Source: Cladosporium halotolerans
Lineage: Eukaryota
NCBI RefSeq assembly: GCF_011745625.1
Contig: NW_027191456.1
Span: 1 to 64,000, forward strand
Reading direction: 5' to 3'
DNA length: 64,000 bases
A model generated the notes under the pieces. It did not search any database, was not told where the DNA came from, and was given only the letters and a program-made list of their open reading frames with translations. Positions 10,951-30,285 of this stretch are shown piece by piece (position 1 is the first letter of the stretch; every line of letters begins with the position of its first letter). The position numbers were made by a program, and so were the translations under genes.

Positions 10951-13900
10951 CTACCTCCCCTCCCCCTCCCCCTCAACAGCACCCAACCTCACCACCCCCA
11001 ACGCGCCCGCGACAGCATCCACTCCATTTTCCCCACCACCCCCCTCTCCCTTCCTCGCCTCCAAAACCCTCAACGTAGCCCTCAACTCCCGCTCCACGTC
11101 CGCCAGCCCCGCCGGCGGCAGCACGGCGGCACTCTGCTGCTGCTGCGCGAGTTTCTTCCGATACGAGCGCAGCGAGCGCGCGATCGACTCCGTCGCGCCC
11201 GCGAGCGAAGCCGGGCCCGAGCCGACGCTGACAGTCGCCGTGGGCGAGCGCTCGGCCGCTTTGTTGGAGCCGGGGGGCGCAGCGAGAGCGAGGCTGTCTG
11301 TGCTGCGGCCGGTGGGGCCGCGGAGGGTTGTGGCGAGGGAGGTGCGGCGTTTGCTTGACGCTGCTGTTGTTGTGGCTGTTTGGGCGCGGTCGCGGGGTCT
11401 GCTGCTGTTGGAGGAGGGGTTTCGTGGACTAGGCGGGGAGGGGGAGCGGTTGCGGAGCGGGGAGTCGGGGGGGAAGACGGAGAGGAAGGCGGGTTCGAGG
11501 CGTGGGGTTGTGGCGATGCGGGAGGGCTTTTTGCGGAGGCGTTGGGGGGATTTTGGGGGGACGGCGGCGGTTGATGTGCTGGTGGGAGAACTGGGTTCTG
11601 CGTCGGAAGGCGTGGGCTGCTTGAGGCGTCTGTGGTGGCGGGAGAGGTCTGAGTGGGAGAGGATTTTGCGGAGAGGGGGGTTGAGGTTGAGGAGGGAGGT
11701 GTCGTTTGACGAGTTGGTGGTGGAGGGGGTTTCGAGGACGATGCCGAGGCCGCCGCCGTTGGGGTCTGAGGTTGGGTTTGGGGAGGCGAGGACTGTGTCC
11801 CAAATGAAGATTGTGGAGTCGGCGGCGACGGTGACGAGGCGGGAGGTGGGGGAGTGCTCGTCGGGAGGCAACAGGGCGACGTCGGTGATGCCTTCCGTGT
11901 GGCCCCAGTCTCTGGCGATGAGGGAGCCAGTTTCCGTGTAGAGTCGCACTGATTTATCCGAACTTGCTACGCCGGCGATGGCAGGATTGCCGTTCAGCGA
12001 GGGCGCGTATAAGACTTTTGAGATTACGGCGGCCTCTCCTCCTTCCGCATCCGAGCACTTGAAGCTTGACGCGCATTGTCCGTTTTTGATCTTATACCTG
12101 CCAATGCAGCGATCGACGGTCGCGATCAAGAGTTCGCCTTCTCCAGCAAGACACATCGAGGTTGGAGACGTCTTGACAGTGATAGCTCGCAGCATGACAA
12201 AAGCCAACGATTCCACAATGCCTTGCTCGCGAAACATGACCTCGCGAACGACGATCGACCTGTCGGCTGAGTGAGTGATCAACCGCCGCTCCACATCATC
12301 GTAGAGAACACCAGTAACCGCGCCTGCGTGCTCATCCATGGTCTGAACTAGCGAAAGCTGTTCATCCTTCCACATGAACAGCTGAGACATGCGATCTCGG
12401 CCGGCTGTAGCGAGGAAATCTACTCCGTCGATCTGAAAAGCGCAGAGATCCATAATCTCTGCAGAGTGAGCTCGCACTTGGGTGACTATAGATTTCGTCT
12501 TGACATCCGCGACAGAAAGTACGCCATACTTGTCTCCGGAAGCGATGAGAGCGCCACTAAAGAATGGTGCGACACTCTTAAGCTCATTGCAGGCGCTTTG
12601 CGCGGATGGCGCAGGTGGAACGGGGATGTTGAGAAATGCATCCAGTCCGCCGGAAGCGTCCCAAAACTGAACCAGGCCGTTTGCTGAGAAAGTCAGAAAG
12701 CGTGCTGATGGCAGCGCATCTGAACGGAAGAGCGTGACGCCTTGCACGGCTTCCTTATGAGCGGCGAGTTGTGTGAACGATTGATCGTCGGCGTTTCGTA
12801 ACGTAAGCACACGCTCTGAATCCAGTTCGACGGTAACCGGGCCAAGCGCAGCTGTCGCGACAGTCGAAGACGCGCCGGTTGATCCGGATCTTGCTGGCAG
12901 GACTGTTTGGCGTCGTGACCGACTCGGCGGTCTCTCTGGCTGGGAGTATTCTGAGGGTTGCAACGTCTTGACGCAGCCTTCACTTCCTAGCACCTGCACC
13001 ACCCCATTGTCGTCGACACGTGCGGCACTTACTGAGAAATTGGCGTTCGCGACCAATGTCAAGGATTGCACTTTATCCCTGTCGTTTAATGTACAAATCT
13101 CCCCGCTGTCCGCACAAACGATCGCTTCACTGTCGGATACGGGCACTACCGCGACGAAGTTGCACTCAAGCAGGTCGTTCAACAAAGTGTTCTTTCCCGC
13201 AAGGGTCTTGTGCCTCGGAGTGAGAATGCTGTTCCCGTAGTCGGATGCCCGTGTATCGGTGCGCTGTTTCGGTGCCAGAAAGGACGGATTCGAGACCATC
13301 TCTGGGCTTCGCAAATCCAAGTTGGCATCATCGTCCGGCCGCCAGACTTTGATAAATCGCAAGCCGGCCGTGACAAGAGCGTCGCCGACCCAGGCAATGA
13401 CATTGGTCACTGTAGTCAATTTATTGCTGGCGTGCAGACCAGGTGCACCGGACTTTTCGTCGATGCTCCAGATGTACAGGAAACCATCATTGACGGTCCC
13501 CAGCGAGGCCAGGAACCTCGAATCCGGACTGAACCGCAGAGCGTGCACGCCAAAGCTGTGCTCGGAAATCGTCGCAACCGGACTATCTGACGAGTCGTCT
13601 GCTAACGAAAATATCGCAATCCGAGGCTTGTATCCGGTCTCTCCCAGCGCCAGCCACTTCCCATTGGGACTCAAAGCCACGGAGGTCGCAGCCTTCACGC
13701 GATCCTTAGCGGTCGTCGACCTGCCTGAGGGAGAGTCGGACCAGTCGCGGCCAGCAGAAGCCAGCGGCGAGCCGCCGACGCTCTGCTCCCTCACAAACCC
13801 CAAAGCGCGATGTCTCGGGTCGCTTGGGGTGGGCGTCGCGCCTCCGTCTCTTGCAATGCCGGGCGGGGTGGGTCTGGCGCGGTAGAAGCGCTGCTTTGTG

Positions 13901-14142
13901 CTCAAGCCGTCGGCGGTGGCTTCGACTTCCGCAAGAACCGCACAAGCTCCGGCGGTATGGGCGAAAAGGCGCGGAGCGGGCAGGAAGTCGAAGGCAGTGG
14001 GCGAGGCGGTGGTGGTGCCTATGACATGGCGTAATTGCAGGCCCGGCTCGTCGGGCTTCGGGAATCTGGTGGGCGAGCGAGGCGAGGTGTTTTTGTGGAA
14101 GGGCGAGTTGGAGGGCGTCAGCCGCAAGGCGTGGTGGTTCAT
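10951..14142 (-). CDS. WD40-repeat protein of WDR62/MAPKBP1 type with low-complexity S/P-rich C-terminus
   Basis: ORF of ~1060-1094 aa with many WD-like repeats (ALSPNGKWLALGETG, FSPDSRFLASLG, WGHTEGITDV, TIFIWD); likely start MNHHALRLTP at 14142. Confidence 0.8.
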   Translation of the reverse strand: MNHHALRLTPSNSPFHKNTSPRSPTRFPKPDEPGLQLRHVIGTTTASPTAFDFLPAPRLFAHTAGACAVLAEVEATADGLSTKQRFYRARPTPPGIARDGGATPTPSDPRHRALGFVREQSVGGSPLASAGRDWSDSPSGRSTTAKDRVKAATSVALSPNGKWLALGETGYKPRIAIFSLADDSSDSPVATISEHSFGVHALRFSPDSRFLASLGTVNDGFLYIWSIDEKSGAPGLHASNKLTTVTNVIAWVGDALVTAGLRFIKVWRPDDDANLDLRSPEMVSNPSFLAPKQRTDTRASDYGNSILTPRHKTLAGKNTLLNDLLECNFVAVVPVSDSEAIVCADSGEICTLNDRDKVQSLTLVANANFSVSAARVDDNGVVQVLGSEGCVKTLQPSEYSQPERPPSRSRRQTVLPARSGSTGASSTVATAALGPVTVELDSERVLTLRNADDQSFTQLAAHKEAVQGVTLFRSDALPSARFLTFSANGLVQFWDASGGLDAFLNIPVPPAPSAQSACNELKSVAPFFSGALIASGDKYGVLSVADVKTKSIVTQVRAHSAEIMDLCAFQIDGVDFLATAGRDRMSQLFMWKDEQLSLVQTMDEHAGAVTGVLYDDVERRLITHSADRSIVVREVMFREQGIVESLAFVMLRAITVKTSPTSMCLAGEGELLIATVDRCIGRYKIKNGQCASSFKCSDAEGGEAAVISKVLYAPSLNGNPAIAGVASSDKSVRLYTETGSLIARDWGHTEGITDVALLPPDEHSPTSRLVTVAADSTIFIWDTVLASPNPTSDPNGGGLGIVLETPSTTNSSNDTSLLNLNPPLRKILSHSDLSRHHRRLKQPTPSDAEPSSPTSTSTAAVPPKSPQRLRKKPSRIATTPRLEPAFLSVFPPDSPLRNRSPSPPSPRNPSSNSSRPRDRAQTATTTAASSKRRTSLATTLRGPTGRSTDSLALAAPPGSNKAAERSPTATVSVGSGPASLAGATESIARSLRSYRKKLAQQQQSAAVLPPAGLADVERELRATLRVLEARKGEGGGGENGVDAVAGALGVVRLGAVEGEGEGR

Positions 14143-15712
14143 CCTGGGTTGCGCCGTCTTCGACTGTGCCAGGGCGATCGAGGATAGTGCCAGCTCAGCA
14201 GCATCACCGTCATTGCTCGGCGGCGAGCATGTCAATGGCGTGTGAGGGGTGAAAGGTGGGTGTTTTGAGGGTGGAATGCGGATTTGGTGGCCTGGAAACA
14301 GCAGTCACAACTCGGCGAGGAGCTCTCACCGTGCGATGGTGAAGGCGGGCTTCAATTCGACTTGCCGTGCATATCCTCAGTCGTGTTTACACATGGTTGT
14401 GCAGCTCGTGAAAACGACACCGTTGTCTCAGTGGCAGTCTCAGAGGGCTTGCGCAGGCCTTACCGTTTCCCACGACGACCAAAATCAACACAGCGCGCAG
14501 AGAGACACGCCCTCGACGCCAACGCCAACGCCGCCATCGCGAACCCACCGAGACCCGAGCTGGCGGGCGCGTTGTTTAGACGCGAAGCTTAGGCCACTTT
14601 GTCTGCACACTGCTGCAAAGGTGGCGCCTCCTTCGTGAGCCGCATTGCTTGGAAGGCGATGGGATGGTGGGCTTGATATGGCACTACCGGCAATGCACCG
14701 GAGTAATTAAGGCAGCTCGCGCGCGGGATACACAGAAACACGCAGGCTGCTGAGCTGAGACCGACCCCCTGCGCCGGGAAAAATGGTGGCACGCGAGCAG
14801 CACGAGATGCGCGACGGGCGACGGTGCTGGCGCCTCTATTATCCGACCATCTCGCGCCGGCGGCCCCTCATGCCTGCGGCAGCCCGTCGCCGGTCGAGCT
14901 GGTGCGCCGGTGGGGCTCTGAGGACGGCGGCGGCGGCTCGCACGACAGGGCGATGTCACCATGAGCGAGGCAAACACCACCCCGTCGCGCCTCGCGGTCA
15001 CGATAATGGTCAGCTATGTCAGCCCAGACAACGTGCCACCCTCTCCCACTTCTCCGCACCCTCTCGGCAGCGAGTGCTCGGGAGCAGAGGCCAGTCTGGC
15101 GCAGGCGGATGAGCGGATGACGATGATCCAGCCCTTGGCGCTGAACCCGGCCCAGCCAGGGCTCCAGCTCCCCGCACCGCGCAGCACGAAGGATGATCTG
15201 TTGCTCTGCGCGCCCGCCGCGCCATGATGATTGTCGCAGGTGGCCCGCCGCCGCACGACACCTTAATAGCAAGCACAATGGCCGCCGCTGGCTTGGGGCG
15301 AGCAGAGGTGGCAGCCGCACAGCTACACCACCGCGCCAGAGCCCGTCGTCCGCAAGCAACACCGGCAAACACCATCCGTAGCCACTATAAACAGCCATCG
15401 CAGACACCCAAGCGCAGACGCACCCAGCCCGAACCGAGCTGGCCCAACTCCATTGACCCGCCGCATCCAGGGACTAGCGGAACAAGCCCAGGGTAGGCAG
15501 AGAGCAGAGGCCCGAGGACCACCACTCGGCACCCGCGTTATTAGATCGTCCACTGCTGCTGCCCTCACGCTCCGGCCTCGCAGTCTACCTTACCTTACCT
15601 TTGCGACTTTGCTGTCGACCTTCACCCTATCTCCCTTTTACCCCTCCCCCACCGCTTCGACGCTGCTCTCGGCCACGCCAGCGCAGTCCACAAGCCAAAT
15701 CGCCCACTCTCC

Positions 15713-19932: not shown

Positions 19933-21231
19933 CGAGAGGTCGATAAACCAAATAGAATGTAGGAATCTCATTGTCTCCAAAGTGGGAAGTGGATTCGATT
20001 GAATGAGACGTGTATTTGGCTAGGGTTCTTGGAAGACGGACAGATTTTGTGACTGATTTGATATGTGTTGCAGATGACGGATGCAGGTAAGCATTCAATT
20101 TCCTTCTGTCCGTGGTTGAGGCTTCGTGAATCCAAATAATTCTCCTGTCAGCTCGAAAGCGCCAGGGATTTAGGTAAGTATCTTGTTATGCAGTTGTCGT
20201 AAGTATAAGCCAACACTAATACTCTCTACATGACAAGAGTGCAAATATTCAGACTGAGACATTGCTTTCCGGGGACTTGGGACGGTCAACATGTATGGGT
20301 GGTCGGACGGGTAACTATGCAGCTGCACGTGGTCGGAACCGAAGAACAAAAGTCGGGAGTGCATTGCGGACTTGGAAGTCAGTTGCAGAGATGGATGGCG
20401 TGTCTGCGCGTCTCGCGTGCGACGAATCTGTCAGCGAGGCCGCGGAAGGCTTAAGTCCGACGTGGTGACTTCATGATCTGGATGGCGAATGCGCATTTGT
20501 GTTCTGATAAGACGCCTTCTAGTGCGGACAAGATGGAAGTCGGCGTGATGGTGGTGCTCGCGGTAGACGACCAAGCAAAGGGACGCGTACTCCAGGCGCG
20601 GCCGCGGCTTGGCACAAAGCGAAGTGCAGCGCGGGCGGGCGGCGGATAGGGTTTAGCGCTGAAGAAGCGCGGAGCAGGCTCAGCACAGATGGCGGGCTTG
20701 AAGTTCCTCCCGTCGCCAGTCGGAGAGTTGACGGCCGGCCGTTGCGGCAGGAACGCCGGTGCTATTCTTGTTGCAGTAGTGAATGCCTGCCACAGCACAC
20801 ACGGCATTCGTGCCTACACACAACCAGCACACAACAATTGCTACAATAATATTCAAACAAAGCGACTCGTCCACAAATAGCGCTCACGTGGCTGCACCAG
20901 CTCTTTCTCCTCAGCCGCCGCATCATCGTCGCGCGCGCGCCCAGCCATCTGCTAAGCCACCCTCCGCGTAGAGTACGTGATCGCAGCCCTGCCCGGGAGT
21001 CCGCTGCATCCGCCCTGCACTTGGCGGCAACGCCTCGACCCTCCTCCTCCCCGTCCATATCGCCTCCCTCACACTCGTTACATCGCTTCCATTTCTTCAC
21101 GCCCGTTTCGCCCTAATTTCGCTTTGCATCCTGTTGCAATACCCGGCGGTCTCTCTGCTTTGCCACGACTGCTGCATCCGCCGCGCATCCTCCCTGGATA
21201 GACGACGACCCCCCCGACTCTCAGCGCCACC

Positions 21232-23697
21232 ATGCGCTTCTCTACCCTCCTCTCTGCCGCTGCAGCCCTCGTCGCGCCCGTGGCAGAGGCCAGCAGTAGC
21301 ATACGAAATCCCATCTCAGCCCTCTCCGAAGTACACAACGCCACCATCCACACCTCCAATCATCGTATACACGCCCTGTCGCACTTCGACCTCACCTTCA
21401 ACATCCGAGATGAGCTGCACGTCAAGTTCAGCCTCGAACCCAACCATGACATTCTCGGCGAGAATGCCATGATCACACACCTCGCGCCCGACGGTAGCGT
21501 ACGGCATTCCGAGAAGGCGGATAGGATGAAGCACAAGGTCTTCAAGGGCAAGTCGTTCGTGAAGCGGTTGAGCAAGAAGGAGGACCGATGGGAGCAGGTT
21601 GGTTGGGCACGCGCTTTGGTTAGCAAGGATGGCGAGACGCCTCTTTTTGAGGGCGCCTTCTCTGTCCACAGGGATCATCACCACATTCAGACATCGCATA
21701 ACTACCTTCGCACACGGCACATGTACGACCCGGAGATCAACCGCGCGGAACCTGGGAAGGAGTACTTGGTCATGTGGCGCGACTCTGATATTCTTCCTAC
21801 CGAGTCTGGATTCATGCACCAGGAATTGAAGCGTGGACTGGACGAGGGAAATGAGACGGCTAGCTGTTATGCCGATGGACTCGGATTTAACACCCACCCT
21901 GACCACCCGGTCTACGCTGCCATGCGTAAGCGATCTGAGTCTTCCTTTGGTGCTATGGACTTCTCCAACATCTTCGGTCTCAGCAAGAGACAAAGCGACC
22001 AAACTGGAGGACGCGGTGCCGTCGTGAATTTGGAGAGCACTATCGGACAAACTGCCGGCTGCCCTTCGACACGTAAGGTTGCCCTTGTCGGTGTGGCAAC
22101 GGACTGCACTTACACTGGCGAGTTCAATTCTACCGAGAGCACTCGTGAGAATGTCATCTCATCAATGAACACCGCCTCTGCCGTTTGGGAAAACACTTTC
22201 AACATTTCTCTCGGTCTAGCCAACCTGACCATCTCCGATGCCGAATGCCCGGGTACTCCTCCTCAGAACACCCCATGGAACCAGGGCTGCAGCGATAGTG
22301 TGGACATTCAGGACCGTCTTAACCTCTTCTCAGCTTGGCGTGGCCAGCAACGTGATAGCAACAGCCACTGGACCCTCCTTTCAACCTGCAACACTGGATC
22401 TGCCGTCGGTCTTGCTTGGCTCGGCCAGGCTTGCGTCAACGAGGCCATGGATTCCAACTCATCCACCACCGGCAGCGGCCAGGCCGATTCAGGTCAAGAG
22501 ACTGTCGCTGGAGCCAACGTTGTCGTCCGCACTCGAGGTGCCTCCGAGTGGCAAGTCATCGCCCACGAGACCGGCCACACCTTTGGTGCCGTGCACGACT
22601 GTGACTCGCAAACCTGTGCTCAACAGAACACCGTCTCTGCTCAACAGTGCTGCCCTCTCAGTGCCAACACCTGCGACGCCGGTGGCCAATACATCATGAA
22701 CCCATCCAGCCGACAAGGCATCGAAGACTTCTCCCCCTGTTCCATCGGCAACGTTTGCAGCGCCATCGGCCGCAACAGCGTCAACACCGACTGTCTCAGC
22801 AACAACCGCGACGTCGAAACCATTACCGGCCAGCAGTGCGGCAACGGCATCGTCGAAGGCGACGAGCAATGCGACTGCGGCGGCGAAGAAGGCTGCGGCG
22901 ACAACAATTGCTGCGACGCCGCCACCTGCACCTTCAAGAATAACGCTGTCTGCGACGACTCCAACGAAGACTGCTGCCGCAACTGCCAGTTCGCCTCCCA
23001 GGGCACCGTCTGCCGCGAGAGCACCGGCGACTGCGACCCGCAGGAAGTCTGCCCGGGCGACGCCGCCCTCTGCCCCGCCGACACGCACTCCGACGACGGC
23101 ACCTCCTGCGGCTCCGGCCTGCAGTGCGCCTCGGGCCAGTGCACCTCGCGCGACGCGCAGTGCAAGTCCGTCATGGGCAGCTACACGCAGGGCAACGAAA
23201 CCTACGCCTGCGACTCCTCGTCCTGCGTCATCAGCTGCGGCTCGCCCGAGTTCGGCCCCAACGTCTGCTACAGCATCCAGCAGAACTTCCTCGACGGCAC
23301 CGACTGCTCCGGCGGCGGCACGTGCCAGAACGGCCGCTGCCGCGGCGCCTCCGTCGGCGGCCAAGTCTCCTCCTGGATCGACGACCACAAGGCCATCGTC
23401 ATCGGCGTCTGCTGCGCCGTCGGCGGCCTCATCCTCATCGCCATCCTGTCCTGCTGCATCTCCCGCTGCCGCCGCCGCAGAGCCTTCAAGAAGCAGGTCC
23501 CCGCGCCGCCCGCGCCGCCTCCCGGAGGCTGGCAGGGCTGGCAAGGCAGGCCGCAGCAGCAGATGGCGCAGCACGGGGGCGGGTACGCGGCGCCCAACGG
23601 CCAGGGCTGGTATAATGGCCCGCAGCAGGGGGCGGCCGGGTGGAATACGCCGCCGCCGCCGCCGCCGGCTTATTCGGGCCGGCCGCGGTATGCTTAG
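21232..23697 (+). CDS. ADAM-family (M12B) metalloprotease-disintegrin, type I membrane protein
   Basis: Signal peptide, prodomain ending in KR, HETGHTFGAVHD zinc motif with Met-turn (YIMNP), CGNGIVEGDEQCDCG disintegrin domain, Cys-rich/EGF region, TM helix, Pro-rich tail; single exon. Confidence 0.95.
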   Translation: MRFSTLLSAAAALVAPVAEASSSIRNPISALSEVHNATIHTSNHRIHALSHFDLTFNIRDELHVKFSLEPNHDILGENAMITHLAPDGSVRHSEKADRMKHKVFKGKSFVKRLSKKEDRWEQVGWARALVSKDGETPLFEGAFSVHRDHHHIQTSHNYLRTRHMYDPEINRAEPGKEYLVMWRDSDILPTESGFMHQELKRGLDEGNETASCYADGLGFNTHPDHPVYAAMRKRSESSFGAMDFSNIFGLSKRQSDQTGGRGAVVNLESTIGQTAGCPSTRKVALVGVATDCTYTGEFNSTESTRENVISSMNTASAVWENTFNISLGLANLTISDAECPGTPPQNTPWNQGCSDSVDIQDRLNLFSAWRGQQRDSNSHWTLLSTCNTGSAVGLAWLGQACVNEAMDSNSSTTGSGQADSGQETVAGANVVVRTRGASEWQVIAHETGHTFGAVHDCDSQTCAQQNTVSAQQCCPLSANTCDAGGQYIMNPSSRQGIEDFSPCSIGNVCSAIGRNSVNTDCLSNNRDVETITGQQCGNGIVEGDEQCDCGGEEGCGDNNCCDAATCTFKNNAVCDDSNEDCCRNCQFASQGTVCRESTGDCDPQEVCPGDAALCPADTHSDDGTSCGSGLQCASGQCTSRDAQCKSVMGSYTQGNETYACDSSSCVISCGSPEFGPNVCYSIQQNFLDGTDCSGGGTCQNGRCRGASVGGQVSSWIDDHKAIVIGVCCAVGGLILIAILSCCISRCRRRRAFKKQVPAPPAPPPGGWQGWQGRPQQQMAQHGGGYAAPNGQGWYNGPQQGAAGWNTPPPPPPAYSGRPRYA

Positions 23698-24993: not shown

Positions 24994-26955
24994 CTACTTT
25001 TCCTTTTCGCCGCTGCTGTCTCTCAGCTCGTCCAGCTGCTCGTCCAGCGACGATTCAATGGTCTCGGCAAAGTCCTTCCTCTGCTGTGCGACAAAATCGA
25101 TGTCCCATTTGTCTTGCGAACCTTCCTTCCCAACGCCACGCTTAGGTTTAGCCCCGCCAGCCTCTGGCTGCCCGTGTCGCCCCTCCACTGGCTTCTGGAG
25201 CTTGGTTGCCTGATCAGGTGATTCCTCTTGGGCTGGCCACATTTCTGGTAGAACCATTCGTTGGGGCGAACTCTCTTCTACTGAATAGGTCGACTTGCCC
25301 GCGCTCCGCACCGGTAGTGACGGGGCCCACAAGTCGACATCGGAATAGAGTAGATCTCCCCTGGGACCTAGTCTTGTGCGGCGGTGCGAGAGGGGAAGTC
25401 CAACTTTTTCAACCTCCGGGAGGTTCGGGGGATCTCTTGGGTGGAGCGCATGAGGGGATTCTGGCCACGCGTCGTCTCTTCTTGAAGGCGTTGGGATCAG
25501 CTTCGTCAAGCTCGGCGAACGTCGGGATTCGCGTTTGGCGGCCATAAGGCTATCTTGGAGTCTGGAGTGCTCGGCCCTGAGAGTGGCGTTACGAAATTGC
25601 CATTTAGAAGCCTCTGACGACAACTTCGAGATTCTGTCGTTCATCGCCCCAATTGCACTCTCTCGCCTGACGTCGGTAGTGGGGTTCACGGAGGGGGTGG
25701 ACTCATCGGACTCGATGAGATTGTCGGAGCGAACGAGTGATAGGAGGTTGATGGCTGGGTTGGGATTCATGACGTTCCAAACTGACACTGGCAGCGAGAA
25801 TATCAGGTAGGAAGAGTTGGAATTGAATGTCGCCACAGGTCTGATCAACTGCGTGACGTCGAGAGGAAATAAATTGACTGCTCCCACATTAGGTGGCGCA
25901 TGGTCTCGGAACCACTCCATCCAAGTCTCCCTGATAGATTGCCCACCGATCTCGATTAGGGAAACGGATATCAGAACCCTACAAGGCGACGAGAGTGTCT
26001 TTCGGTCGGCGTGTGGAATGACTGTTCCTTGCGGTGTGCTAGAGGTGGGCGCGTTGGGATCTGGAAGTGGTGCCAAAACAATGCCCGCTTTGGCCCCGAC
26101 CATGCAGGTGTATATGGGTGCAGGCTTAAGGCTGTGTTTTGACTGATTTTGCAACAGTCTTGCGTGTAAAGAGCTCACTGTGCAGGGCGAAGCATCCAAG
26201 TCTTGCAATTCGTATATAAGGGCCTTGGTAAGCGTATTTTCATTGGACGCTTTGTCGTTCCCGCTGGCAAGCAGCAATTCTCTTCGGCCTCTGTAGCGTT
26301 GGCCAAAATCACGTACAGAGGCAGATGCATAGCAGCAGTCTAGAACGAAAAGTATCTCTGCTTTGGCACCCATGATCATAGCCTGTGACTCAGACCAGTC
26401 GATCTCCGGCGATGTGGGCGGTACTTTGTCTCCGATGGGTTGCGATTTCCACGCTTTCCAGATGGAATGCTGCGACCTTTTGCTGACTTCGCCGTGGCCA
26501 CCGTAGTATATGATCAGGAGCCCGTCTTCGTCCCTTCCATGTTTGTTCCTCGTCTGCACCAACACCTCTTCTAACTCCCACGACGGCTCGCTGCCGGGCG
26601 AAATTTTCTTGTGCGACGGAATCTCATAGTGTCTCGTTGAATACCTGTAGTCTTCCTCGAAGATGTCTTTGAGTTTTGCGATCTCGCGCGCAGTCCCGAG
26701 ATCATCATCCTCCCAGCTAATCATTAAGACATAAACGCTGGAGTATCTTTGCTGTGGCCGAGGAAATGCAATCCTTTCGAGCCCTTCCGCAACTGTTTTG
26801 ACGAATTCGGAGAGGTCCGTTCCATTGGGATACTGTGGTGCGATGGGATGATGCATACAAGGCTGAGCGCATTCGGAGTCTGCGTTCAGCGCTTGGGCAT
26901 TGTCCATGTGTGTCATCGAGTAAGAGCGCGGTCGACGTGTGAGCGGAAAGGACAT
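24994..26955 (-). CDS. Caspase-like (clan CD, C14/CHAT-type fold) protease-domain protein with second globular domain and coiled-coil/disordered C-terminus
   Basis: VLMISWEDDDL, LIIYYGGHG (His ~26494-26496) and LFVLDCCYA (Cys ~26335-26337) match the caspase-hemoglobinase His-Gly / Asp-x-Cys dyad spacing; 653-aa open ORF. Confidence 0.8.
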   Translation of the reverse strand: MSFPLTRRPRSYSMTHMDNAQALNADSECAQPCMHHPIAPQYPNGTDLSEFVKTVAEGLERIAFPRPQQRYSSVYVLMISWEDDDLGTAREIAKLKDIFEEDYRYSTRHYEIPSHKKISPGSEPSWELEEVLVQTRNKHGRDEDGLLIIYYGGHGEVSKRSQHSIWKAWKSQPIGDKVPPTSPEIDWSESQAMIMGAKAEILFVLDCCYASASVRDFGQRYRGRRELLLASGNDKASNENTLTKALIYELQDLDASPCTVSSLHARLLQNQSKHSLKPAPIYTCMVGAKAGIVLAPLPDPNAPTSSTPQGTVIPHADRKTLSSPCRVLISVSLIEIGGQSIRETWMEWFRDHAPPNVGAVNLFPLDVTQLIRPVATFNSNSSYLIFSLPVSVWNVMNPNPAINLLSLVRSDNLIESDESTPSVNPTTDVRRESAIGAMNDRISKLSSEASKWQFRNATLRAEHSRLQDSLMAAKRESRRSPSLTKLIPTPSRRDDAWPESPHALHPRDPPNLPEVEKVGLPLSHRRTRLGPRGDLLYSDVDLWAPSLPVRSAGKSTYSVEESSPQRMVLPEMWPAQEESPDQATKLQKPVEGRHGQPEAGGAKPKRGVGKEGSQDKWDIDFVAQQRKDFAETIESSLDEQLDELRDSSGEKEK

Positions 26956-27244
26956 GATAAGACTCGAGCGAGATGAAGTGTCAATGTTGGGACCATGGAA
27001 TGCCGGGAATGCATATTGTAAGCAGCAGTCCGCGAGTGGAGGTCCCTCTTAAAGATGTGCATCCCGGTCAGGCTGAAATGCATAGTCGAACGCCACCTTA
27101 GCTGAGCCGATTCGCTAGCATATGCTGCAAGCCCAAGTTCGCATGGCCCGCTATGATGCTCAGCCTGATGCTGACTTCAGCACCAAACCCCAGAGGAAAC
27201 CTGAAGTCCAAACATTCTTGACTAGATATTACAGAGCCTCCGCG

Positions 27245-28375
27245 ATGACGAAAGCCGATCTAAATGTGGTCTACGCGAACCTGCTTCGCAATCACCCAGA
27301 AGGTCATGCCTTGTACTTCAAGGTGGCTGCGAGCCAAATGGAGCCCGGCGACTGCGGCTACTTCAGTGAGAACGGCCAATGGAAACAAATTGTGGGAATA
27401 GCGGCTGTGGAGTTCAAGGATCTCGTATCCCAAGGCTGGAAGCCGCCGACTCAGACTTTGAAGACCGAAACTCAGCACGGTATCGAGTGGCCCATCAAAA
27501 TATCCGAGAGTGTAATCGATATCAAAGTATCAGCAAAACTTGGCGCGAGGTGAGTAAGGCTGACCTAGGGTGGCTAAAGCGTAGACTTTGATTTGTATCC
27601 AGCGTTCCAGGTGCTCCGATTTCTGGCGGGTCCACAATGAGCTTTAGCACGAAGAGAGGTGCCGGAGCGATTCTTATCACAGCTGGAGAAGTGACCTCTC
27701 GTCAACTCGAACGCGACCTGCAAGCATAAAAGTGGGTTACCGAACCACAAAACATGAAAAAACTGCTTGGTGAATGGGAAGAGATCTCCGAGCAAAAGCG
27801 GACCTTGTGGGTAATCACTGGAACTTACGCTGCTCAAAGTTGCGCATTGTCTGTTCTCCACTCCCCAGAGTCATCCGCAAGTATTGGGATGGATGTTCAT
27901 GTGGCGGATATTGCGAAGGCTACTCCGTCCTTGGAATGGTGGAAGCAAGACTCGGACAAGACCTGGATCATAATGACGTGAGCATTTGATCAGCTTGAGA
28001 TCCCGAACGGCATTGACATTCATTTCAAGGACTCCGGCGTAGTGCTGTTCATGAGCGGCATCGCCTTCAACCTCAGCTTTCTCCGGAGAAGCGAGGTAAA
28101 GCAATCTTGTGAAGTTTCATGAGCAAAGCTGCTGATTCCATGCCCAGCTTCGTGCCGAGTACAAGCGGCGCAAACAGCATCTGTATCGCGATTCGGCGAC
28201 GAGCAATCTACAGTACCCGATGGAAGACGATGTCGCAACGGGAGATCCCATGGTCGCAATTGTTGTGCCCGAGTACTTCGGACAGGAGAGCAAGGAGCTC
28301 GAGAATGAGCTCGAACATGCTTTCGTTGAGAGTCAGTCGGGTAGTGATGCCTCTGATGAAGGAGAAGACGATTGA
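27245..28375 (+). pseudogene. Gasdermin-like pore-forming protein, 4 exons, disrupted allele
   Basis: Splice model with introns ~27550-27603, 27978-28029, 28096-28147: YANLLRNHPEGHALY...PGDCGYFSENGQW; amphipathic beta-hairpin-like segments; LWVITGTYAA; GVVLFMSG; acidic tail ending ...DASDEGEDD (TGA 28373-28375). In-frame TAA at 27727-27729 and apparent -1 frameshift near 27966. Family assignment is by pattern recognition. Confidence 0.6.
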
Positions 28376-29037: not shown

Positions 29038-29715
29038 TCACGCTCCAGGTTTGGCTGGACCTCTGACTTCCAACTTCCTGGGCTTTTTCTTTGGCTTTTG
29101 CGCCTTCCCTCCAGCCACAGCCTGTTGCTCAGCTTTCTCCGCCCTCTCCCTCGCCTTTTTCAACCCCTCTGCATCCACGGTGTTGACCTTACCAGTCTTC
29201 TGGTCTACTACCACACTTCCATTTTCTATCGCTTCCGTTGGTATCTTTGTCTCCTTTCCCTTGCTATCCTTTTTCATCAGCTTTATCCACGGCCCATGAA
29301 TCACTCCCGTTCCCGCGCCCACCAGCCCGCCCAGCAGGACAGTCGGCACAGTCGCCACGCCACCCACCACCGTGCCAACAACCGTGCCCAAGCCCATGCC
29401 CACGGCGCCACCGATGCCTGCACCTCCGGCGGCACCTTGGAATGTGCCCGATGACAGCAGCCGCGCCCGTCGGCTGTTCCCATGCGCCTCGAGCTCCTTA
29501 TTGTACGCTTCTTGAAGCATTCTGCTGCGCTCAGCGGGGTTTGTGAGAAGACTGGCTTTGGAGCGAAGCGACTCTGCCATCGAGTTGGCAGAAGCGGCGG
29601 CTTGGGACGCAGAAGCTGCGGCTTTGAGGCGGTCGTCTTCGGGCATTTTGGAGAGGGCCTCCGCGCTTAATTCGTTTGATGGATCGGCGGCGGAGGCGGC
29701 GCTGAAGAGGTCCAT
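29038..29715 (-). CDS. Hypothetical protein with glycine-zipper membrane segment
   Basis: Helical Ala/Glu-rich N-terminus, GAAGGAGIGGAVGMGLGTVVGTVVGGVATVPTVLLGGLVGAGTG, basic C-terminus (KKKPRKLEVR); start uncertain. Confidence 0.75.
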   Translation of the reverse strand: MDLFSAASAADPSNELSAEALSKMPEDDRLKAAASASQAAASANSMAESLRSKASLLTNPAERSRMLQEAYNKELEAHGNSRRARLLSSGTFQGAAGGAGIGGAVGMGLGTVVGTVVGGVATVPTVLLGGLVGAGTGVIHGPWIKLMKKDSKGKETKIPTEAIENGSVVVDQKTGKVNTVDAEGLKKARERAEKAEQQAVAGGKAQKPKKKPRKLEVRGPAKPGA

Positions 29716-30285
29716 TTGCTTGGGGCTGCGAGTGTGGGGTGCGTTTGGCGGTGGTGGTACCGGAGCTGGATACCTGCAGGTTGCGTGGTGGCGTTGTTCT
29801 TGCACAGATGGACTTGTAATTAAGTGGTGAAATGTAATATATTAGACCAGATGCTACGTAGATCGGCTAGAGAAGACTAGATAAAAGAAAGAGAAGTGAC
29901 GACTAAGGTGGCCCCAAGATCTCCGCAGGCATCGTCGTAGTGGTTTTGGGGCCAGGCCTCATGCCGTGCCATGTGGGATGACGTTGGTTGCGTCAGGGTC
30001 TTGGGTTGGAGAGAGTTTGACCCGCAAACGTGCGTCCAAGCCGGTTCTTCACGCGCTCATCCTTCTGCGGTTATAACTACCTTACCTAACGTTATTCTCC
30101 ATCGCTGCCTTGGGAGTCTTGCGCGCCTTGCATGTATTCAGAAGATGTGGAGAAATCTGCAGAATACTCTCGTGTTTCGAATCAGCTTTCCACGCATGCC
30201 AATAGACTTACACATAATTATCAGCATACAACGAAGTCTCCTCTATATTTCCATTGCGCTTCGGATTGATCTCGCATCAGCAGCT

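Follow-up and report, generated by a model that had tools for sequence, protein, structure and literature searches.

Of the fungal gasdermin genes surveyed by Clave et al. (2022, PMC8851545), 80% have a protease gene no more than 10 kb away, the partner proteases being of the S8 family in 63% of cases and of the CHAT family in 19%, and that work demonstrated that partners of the S8 or CHAT type cleave fungal gasdermins. Two systems of Podospora anserina serve here as named comparisons: Q1-6/Q2L-6, whose protease is a TPR-CHAT caspase-like enzyme, and HET-Q1/HET-Q2, whose protease is an S8 subtilisin (PMC8851545). Bacterial gasdermins, as described by Johnson et al. (bioRxiv 10.1101/2021.06.07.447441), adjoin C14 or CHAT proteases that cut off a C-terminal peptide, and 15 of 59 have a C14 partner. 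Here we describe two divergent genes at positions 24,994 to 28,375 of a 64,000-nucleotide (nt) stretch of Cladosporium halotolerans DNA (assembly GCF_011745625.1, contig NW_027191456.1, positions 1 to 64,000 of the forward strand), the whole of which is referred to as the window. The locus is probably a fungal pyroptosis-like two-gene module, consisting of a caspase-like protease and a divergent gasdermin-fold effector of ~325 amino acids (aa), that is inactive here.

As in both Podospora systems, a protease gene adjoins a gene for a gasdermin-fold protein of ~280-330 aa that has a short C-terminal extension and, by analogy, pores would be expected to form once an inhibitory C-terminal peptide had been removed; as in Q2L-6, the window protease belongs to the caspase clan. 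Unlike in the Podospora systems, the window effector falls in a different sequence family with no Pfam gasdermin match, its copy is broken, and proteases of the window type match Peptidase_C14/Raptor_N-type models, with CHAT and S8 not among the matches listed. The bacterial systems share the C14-type partner protease, and a short C-terminal inhibitory peptide would be expected on the same analogy. However, the window genes are eukaryotic and have introns, sequence identity to bacterial gasdermins in structural alignments is 7-8%, the palmitoylated N-terminal Cys of the bacterial proteins has no counterpart at the N-terminus of the window effector, and an effector homologue has an extra helix-loop (residues ~248-281) between core strands. 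The pair also differs from RCD-1-1/RCD-1-2 of Neurospora crassa (8jyy, 8jyx, 8jyz), for which the account drawn from PMC12881547 is one of allelic heterodimerisation, with no cleavage and no partner protease. The profile match to RCD-1-2 spans positions 167-249 only, leaving the N-terminal motifs of the family unmatched.

Fold of the effector

An AlphaFold2 model was built for P0005, an intact homologue, from an alignment of 83 sequences, and gave a predicted local distance difference test score (pLDDT) of 86.4 and a predicted template modelling score (pTM) of 0.85; an earlier model from a four-sequence alignment (pLDDT 33) was not used. When the P0005 model was compared with the PDB by Foldseek, ranks 1-12 were all gasdermins (E 9e-5 to 3e-3), including bacterial 8sl0, 9a84, 7n50 and 7n52, GSDMA3 6cb8, Trichoplax 8jyw, RCD-1 8jyz and 8jyy, GSDMD 6vfe and GSDMB 8gtn, with low template modelling scores (TM-scores) of 0.20-0.45 for these matches. 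The best structural match was to a membrane-inserted pore state, and the model has the twisted beta-sheet core, the N-terminal helix and the two hairpin-forming extensions of a gasdermin N-terminal domain. A first-pass annotation of this DNA, made from the sequence alone, had proposed a gasdermin-fold effector and had named the fold search as a test on which the proposal could fail; the twelve top matches bear it out. In addition, a profile of the effector family run against PDB sequences placed four gasdermins as the top 4 of 22 matches listed (E 0.052-0.089), and two members have gasdermin families as their closest named clusters in the ESM Atlas, which we treat as leads only.

The same annotation had pointed to two hairpin-like stretches of alternating polar and hydrophobic residues, and both reappear at the level of the family. 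In two segments, homologue residues ~91-119 and ~190-204, the family-mean hydrophobicity shows a period-2 alternation that exceeds the 95th percentile obtained from 500 shuffles, and both segments are strands in the P0005 model, as befits amphipathic hairpins.

Sequence family of the effector

Translations of exons 2 and 3 are 57-62% identical to four hypothetical proteins of 321-332 aa, which belong to Elasticomyces elasticus and Cladosporium fusiforme. When a profile built from the four was searched against 1.84 billion representatives, it recovered 453 proteins at E<=1e-3 (counted at 50% identity), with 159 remaining at E<=1e-10. The members with a named source are from Cryoendolithus/Rachicladosporium, Fusarium, Trichoderma, Penicillium, Cladophialophora, Exophiala, Cordyceps and Metarhizium, and all are labelled hypothetical. 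Since its exon translations are 57-92% identical to proteins of other genomes, the effector is not a chance open reading frame (ORF).

No Pfam gasdermin match was obtained for the window exons or the four close homologues at E<=1, nor for 70 family representatives at E<=0.01; the sequences scanned stay below the curated thresholds of PF04598 and PF26164 (Bact_GSDM), and the latter was not among the 25 families listed for 83 members. Ten family accessions and two partner-protease accessions were checked against the supplementary tables of Clave et al. (2022, PMC8851545), of which Dataset S1 holds 1,884 fungal gasdermins, and none is listed there. Four of the family's source strains were surveyed in that study, with other gasdermins listed for them (C. 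militaris CM01 and ATCC 34164; Rachicladosporium CCFEE 5018 and 5527). Literature searches found no mention of the effector family, with subscription journals thinly covered and a prior mention possible. Judged by these sequence comparisons, the family of the effector is large, unannotated and separate from the HET-Q1/RCD-1-type gasdermins catalogued in fungi, in keeping with the earlier description of the effector's N-terminal motif as unlike RCD-1 and of the family as little described.

One E. elasticus strain has at least two diverged effector paralogues, P0004 (LTR17_003738) and P0006 (LTR17_024298), and the family therefore seems to expand within genomes. The gasdermin-like domain also stands at the N-terminus of long proteins, namely P0135 (897 aa; domain at residues 9-230, then ankyrin repeats), P0063 (1117 aa) and P0108 (631 aa), and an ESM Atlas cluster from Basidiomycota (~800 aa) joins a structurally similar part to WD40 repeats. 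These long forms suggest fused sensor-effectors, for which a separate protease would be unnecessary.

The partner protease

The divergent gene had been read as encoding a 653-aa protein with an intact caspase-fold dyad; the ORF was confirmed and the dyad residues are conserved in 32 homologues. The translation holds LLIIYYGGHGEV and ILFVLDCCYASA, and the motifs YYGGHG and LDCCY are both present. A protein-database search found 39 homologues of the window protease, including its own product, P0008. In alignment A4 (n=32), and in the same columns of alignment A8, D206, C207 and C208 are invariant and G152, G153 and H154 nearly invariant, i.e., a His-then-Cys dyad in the G-H-G ... D-C-C context of Peptidase family C14. 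At E<=0.01, 19 of the 32 family members match PF00656 (best 2.4e-7), one of the homologues, P0023, exceeds the cut-off of that model at 23.7 bits, and the Raptor N-terminal caspase-like domain is matched by 7 of 32. Identity as a CHAT or S8 protease was considered and rejected, neither family being among the Pfam matches listed for the window protein and the 32 homologues (for the latter, the first 25 of 35 families).

A conserved region of ~110 aa lies C-terminal to the caspase domain, with no match in Pfam and none in PDB sequences, and may be a substrate-recognition or regulatory domain. Beyond it, the window protease ends in a variable, low-complexity tail. The C-termini of homologues differ, with a Tle1-like phospholipase in 4 of 32, TPR arrays in 2 of 32 and DUF6590 in 2 of 32.

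The Tle1 fusions (P0023, P0025, P0027 and P0225) carry a type VI secretion system (T6SS) Tle1-like phospholipase, an alpha/beta hydrolase, C-terminal to the protease. This domain occupies residues 689-932 of P0023 (E 1.3e-22) and is matched in P0025 at E 4.8e-26, while P0225, a cluster mate of P0027, is a Tle1-like catalytic domain protein by its UniRef name. All of these adjoin a gasdermin-like gene. Going by their domain composition, these homologues may be caspase-like proteases that bear a second lytic effector.

Linkage of the two genes

Effector and protease genes are adjacent in the window and at six other loci, i.e., they form a protease-clustered pair, and the conserved linkage of homologues that the first-pass annotation had set as a further test was thus found. 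Gene orientation is known for the window and for metagenome contig L001, the one confirmed locus of 154 pattern matches in a metagenome scan, and the five other pairs are consecutive locus tags: Q7P37_002410/002411 in C. fusiforme, LTR17_024298/024299 and LTR56_021631/021632 in E. elasticus (the latter two proteins also being KAK5759013/KAK5759014), B0A51_05986/05987 in Rachicladosporium sp. and B0A48_00111/00112 in Cryoendolithus antarcticus. On L001 (3,161 nt), the minus strand carries the protease from its residue 1 onwards (1447 to 158) and the plus strand the effector (1691 to 2804); the two are head-to-head, 243 nt apart, with both frames open and the GGHG and LDCCY motifs present. In the window, the divergent starts had been placed ~290 bp apart and are separated by 289 nt as measured (Table 1). 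Identity among the seven pairs is 48-72% for the effectors and 37-58% for the proteases, bar the near-identical Rachicladosporium/Cryoendolithus pair, and adjacency is kept. Two further pairs of fragments whose longest contigs are equal in length, P0206 with P0009 (15,354 nt) and P0204 with P0011 (8,478 nt), are suggestive only.

Lesions in the effector gene

The ORF list shows the effector gene in pieces only, as had been noted, and its four exons were recovered from the DNA and the homologue alignment (Table 1). The three introns are 52-53 nt each and have canonical GT..AG ends, and the motifs previously quoted from the protein (HPEGHALY, PGDCGYF, NGQW, LWVITG and GVVLFMSG) were all located. 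Exon 4 encodes a basic helix, the conserved-Arg loop (HLYR), the strand PMVAIVVPEY, the acidic helix SKELENELEH and an acidic tail.

A stop and a frameshift had been suspected in this gene, and both are real relative to intact relatives (P0206, L001 and the named homologues). At the site of the in-frame TAA, relatives have Tyr (P0206, P0048, P0207), Phe (P0005; L001, codon TTC), Trp (P0004) or Leu (P0006, P0007); the closest of them, P0206, is a fragment that is 92% identical over 111 aa of exon 2. At the end of exon 2, the window reads ...TGGATCATAATGAC and L001 ...TGGATCAAGTATGAAGAT, in each case directly before GT, and in protein alignments the relatives read WIKYKD or WIKYED here. As a result of the 4-nt shortfall relative to L001, two surplus bases precede the GT donor of intron 2 (27978), which puts the gene out of frame. 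Splicing around the lesions was considered and rejected, since the TAA is not skipped by any GT..AG intron of plausible size and this GT is the sole donor in the vicinity of the exon 2 end. Protein-database searches returned no effector product from the window's own record; the protease product is present.

The effector gene of the window is a pseudogene or is mis-assembled. Because the effector has a premature stop and a frameshift, with the protease ORF intact, the module is most likely non-functional in this genome, as a decayed or null allele. The rest of the gene is well preserved, as the 92% identity of exon 2 to its closest relative and the canonical splice sites of all three introns attest, and such preservation would be in keeping with an assembly or sequencing artefact in a module that is intact and functional in the organism. 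We consider this unlikely, however, as the two lesions are independent and differ in kind (a substitution that gives TAA and a shortfall of 4 nt), neither can be put down to a simple error in homopolymer length, and the same searches that gave P0008 gave no window-encoded effector product.

Proposed mechanism and cut site

By analogy with HET-Q1/HET-Q2, Q1-6/Q2L-6 and the bacterial gasdermin systems, we infer that the protease would be the activator, that the effector would be toxic and that the pair may serve in allorecognition or immunity. In an intact module, the effector would be held inactive by its own C-terminal segment until the protease, once triggered, cut that segment off; the freed core would then insert its two hairpins into the membrane, oligomerise into pores and kill the cell.

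An acidic tail after HLYR, with cleavage at HLYR/D, had been proposed. The tail is there (61 aa), but a cut at this point appears doubtful from the model, in which the gasdermin core aligns beyond HLYR. The HLYR loop has a mean pLDDT of 66 (homologue residues 261-270) and an Arg conserved in 5 of 5 aligned sequences. Structural alignments to a cleaved bacterial gasdermin reach ~residue 292 of the model, through PLVAVMMPEY (PMVAIVVPEY in the window). Since the core aligns this far, a cut site at the PEY-x-G-[KQ]-x-S linker is favoured, and the removable peptide may, on the model, be only the last ~30 aa, comprising the terminal acidic helix and tail after that linker.

Weighing of the module and its alternatives

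Several points weigh against reading the locus as a protease-activated gasdermin module. On the effector side, the modelled P0005, which stands in for the broken window product, is 57-68% identical to the window exon translations (alignment A1); sequence-level similarity to gasdermins is not significant alone (PDB profile E 0.05-0.09); and PF04598 (Gasdermin) is touched by 1 of 83 members, at a sub-threshold E of 0.023 in a scan at E<=10. On the protease side, the window protein matches PF00656 below threshold (E 0.02; 15 bits, cut-off 21.4), the protease-family profile has no match to PDB sequences at E<=1, and no recognisable sensor domain or sensor repeats were found in the window protease. 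As to linkage, for LTR17_003738 and LTS10_008561, two of seven named close homologues of the effector, the 39 protease hits include none with a neighbouring tag. The demonstrated adjacencies are all in related Dothideomycetes, and shared descent therefore contributes to the pattern; the gene contexts compared are those of Dothideomycete-like loci.

It is also conceivable, though quite unlikely, that the effector is a gasdermin-fold pore-former that is not activated by its neighbour's cleavage and responds to allelic heterodimerisation, as in RCD-1-1/RCD-1-2, or to another signal, with the protease acting as a co-regulated second effector or regulator. RCD-1, as presented in PMC12881547, is a cleavage-independent fungal gasdermin; the 4 of 32 protease homologues that bear a putative death effector of their own (Tle1-like) suggest independent action; and of the two Elasticomyces paralogues, LTR17_003738 and LTR17_024298, one only has a demonstrated protease neighbour. 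Against this, the same arrangement is seen in every cleavage-controlled microbial gasdermin in the material taken from PMC8851545 and bioRxiv 10.1101/2021.06.07.447441. Moreover, tight head-to-head adjacency has been held across the divergence of the effectors (48-72%), and the C-terminal extension past the gasdermin core is conserved and confidently modelled (pLDDT 84-91 for residues 271-300 of the P0005 model).

Finally, a shared fold is no proof of function, the neighbours are housekeeping genes with no NLR or HET genes nearby, and the window protease is without sensor repeats, but it is very unlikely that the gasdermin-like fold serves a non-lethal role (membrane or lipid binding, secretion or development) with the protease in ordinary maturation and not death, considering that the period-2 amphipathic hairpin segments are conserved family-wide, that a membrane-inserted pore state is the best structural match, that loss by nonsense and frameshift fits a dispensable, potentially costly death gene, and that TPR arrays in 2 of 32 protease homologues and ankyrin or WD40 repeats in some effector-domain proteins are repeat architectures typical of fungal immune-type receptors.

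Other features of the locus

The genes that flank the module are ordinary, coding for an ADAM-type reprolysin/disintegrin protein, an acetyl-CoA synthetase, a dehydrogenase, an MFS transporter, tryptophan synthase, IDO and others; among them no NLR or HET genes were found near the module, and the window contains no second copy of the protease or the effector. Coordinates are collected in Table 1.

Table 1. Features of the protease-effector locus and its neighbours, in window positions
Feature	Positions	Strand	Basis or remark
Protease ORF, stop-to-stop	24994-27048	minus	
Caspase-like protease gene (clan CD, Peptidase_C14-type), 653 aa	24997..26955	minus	ATG first at 26955, stop codon 24994-24996, no intron needed
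Caspase-like catalytic domain, ~residues 60-300	26056..26778	minus	alignment A4, 32 homologues
Catalytic residue His154	26494-26496	minus	
Conserved residues Asp206, Cys207, Cys208	26332-26340	minus	
Conserved domain of no known family, ~residues 330-440 (CRVLISV..W..WFRDHAPP..PVSVWN..PAI.FLS.VRS.NL)	25636..25968	minus	consensus of alignments A4 and A8
Divergent intergenic region between start codons, presumed bidirectional promoter	26956..27244	.	same layout in L001, 243-nt spacer
Gasdermin-like gene, four exons, ATG 27245, TGA 28373-28375	27245..28375	plus	DNA reading and homologue alignment
Exon 1, residues 1-101 plus 2 nt; motifs G20, P34-G35, G38-Y39, W46	27245..27549	plus	alignment A1, family conservation
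Intron 1, GTGAGT..CAG	27550-27602	plus	
Exon 2, both amphipathic hairpin segments and LWVITG strand	27603..27977	plus	translation; 92% identical to P0206
Lesion 1, in-frame TAA	27727..27729	plus	sense codon in relatives
Lesion 2, exon 2 end 4 nt short, frameshift	27970..27977	plus	DNA alignment with L001
Intron 2, GTGAGC..AAG	27978-28029	plus	
Exon 3 (DSGVVLFMSGIAFNLSFLRRSE)	28030..28095	plus	
Intron 3, GTAAAG..CAG	28096-28147	plus	
Exon 4	28148..28375	plus	translation, alignment, secondary structure of homologue model
WD40 double-propeller protein, 1117 aa, further upstream	10951-14304	minus	no link to module seen
ADAM-type membrane metalloprotease (reprolysin and disintegrin, Pro/Gly-rich tail), upstream neighbour	21202-23697	plus	no link to module seen
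ORF of 267 aa, downstream neighbour, Gly-rich hydrophobic stretch (GAAGGAGIGGAVGMGLGTVVGTVVGGVATVPTVLLGGLVGAGTGV)	29038-29841	minus	no Pfam match

Significance

The logic of a gasdermin-fold effector paired with an activating protease is known from protease-clustered microbial gasdermins; what differs here is the effector family, the C14-like protease and the Tle1-like lipase fusions. We put at about even the chance that these genes represent an unrecognised, widespread clade of fungal gasdermins, spread over several ascomycete classes and with look-alikes among Basidiomycota, missed by existing sequence models and controlled by C14-type proteases in place of S8 or CHAT ones, in which several lineages have a Tle1-fused protease (pore plus lipase) and of which the window copy is being lost.

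Both the censuses of fungal gasdermins and the conclusion that their controllers are S8 and CHAT proteases rest on HET-Q1/RCD-1-like sequence searches. Since a second gasdermin-fold family would escape such searches, the pyroptosis-like repertoire of fungi would be under-counted. Pairing with a C14-type protease would draw fungal systems nearer to those of bacteria (C14/CHAT) and animals (caspase), and the Tle1-like lipase fused to the partner protease in some species suggests a testable combination of effectors. A broken effector beside an intact protease would be a natural example of death-gene turnover, as expected if death genes are costly or under balancing, presence/absence selection.

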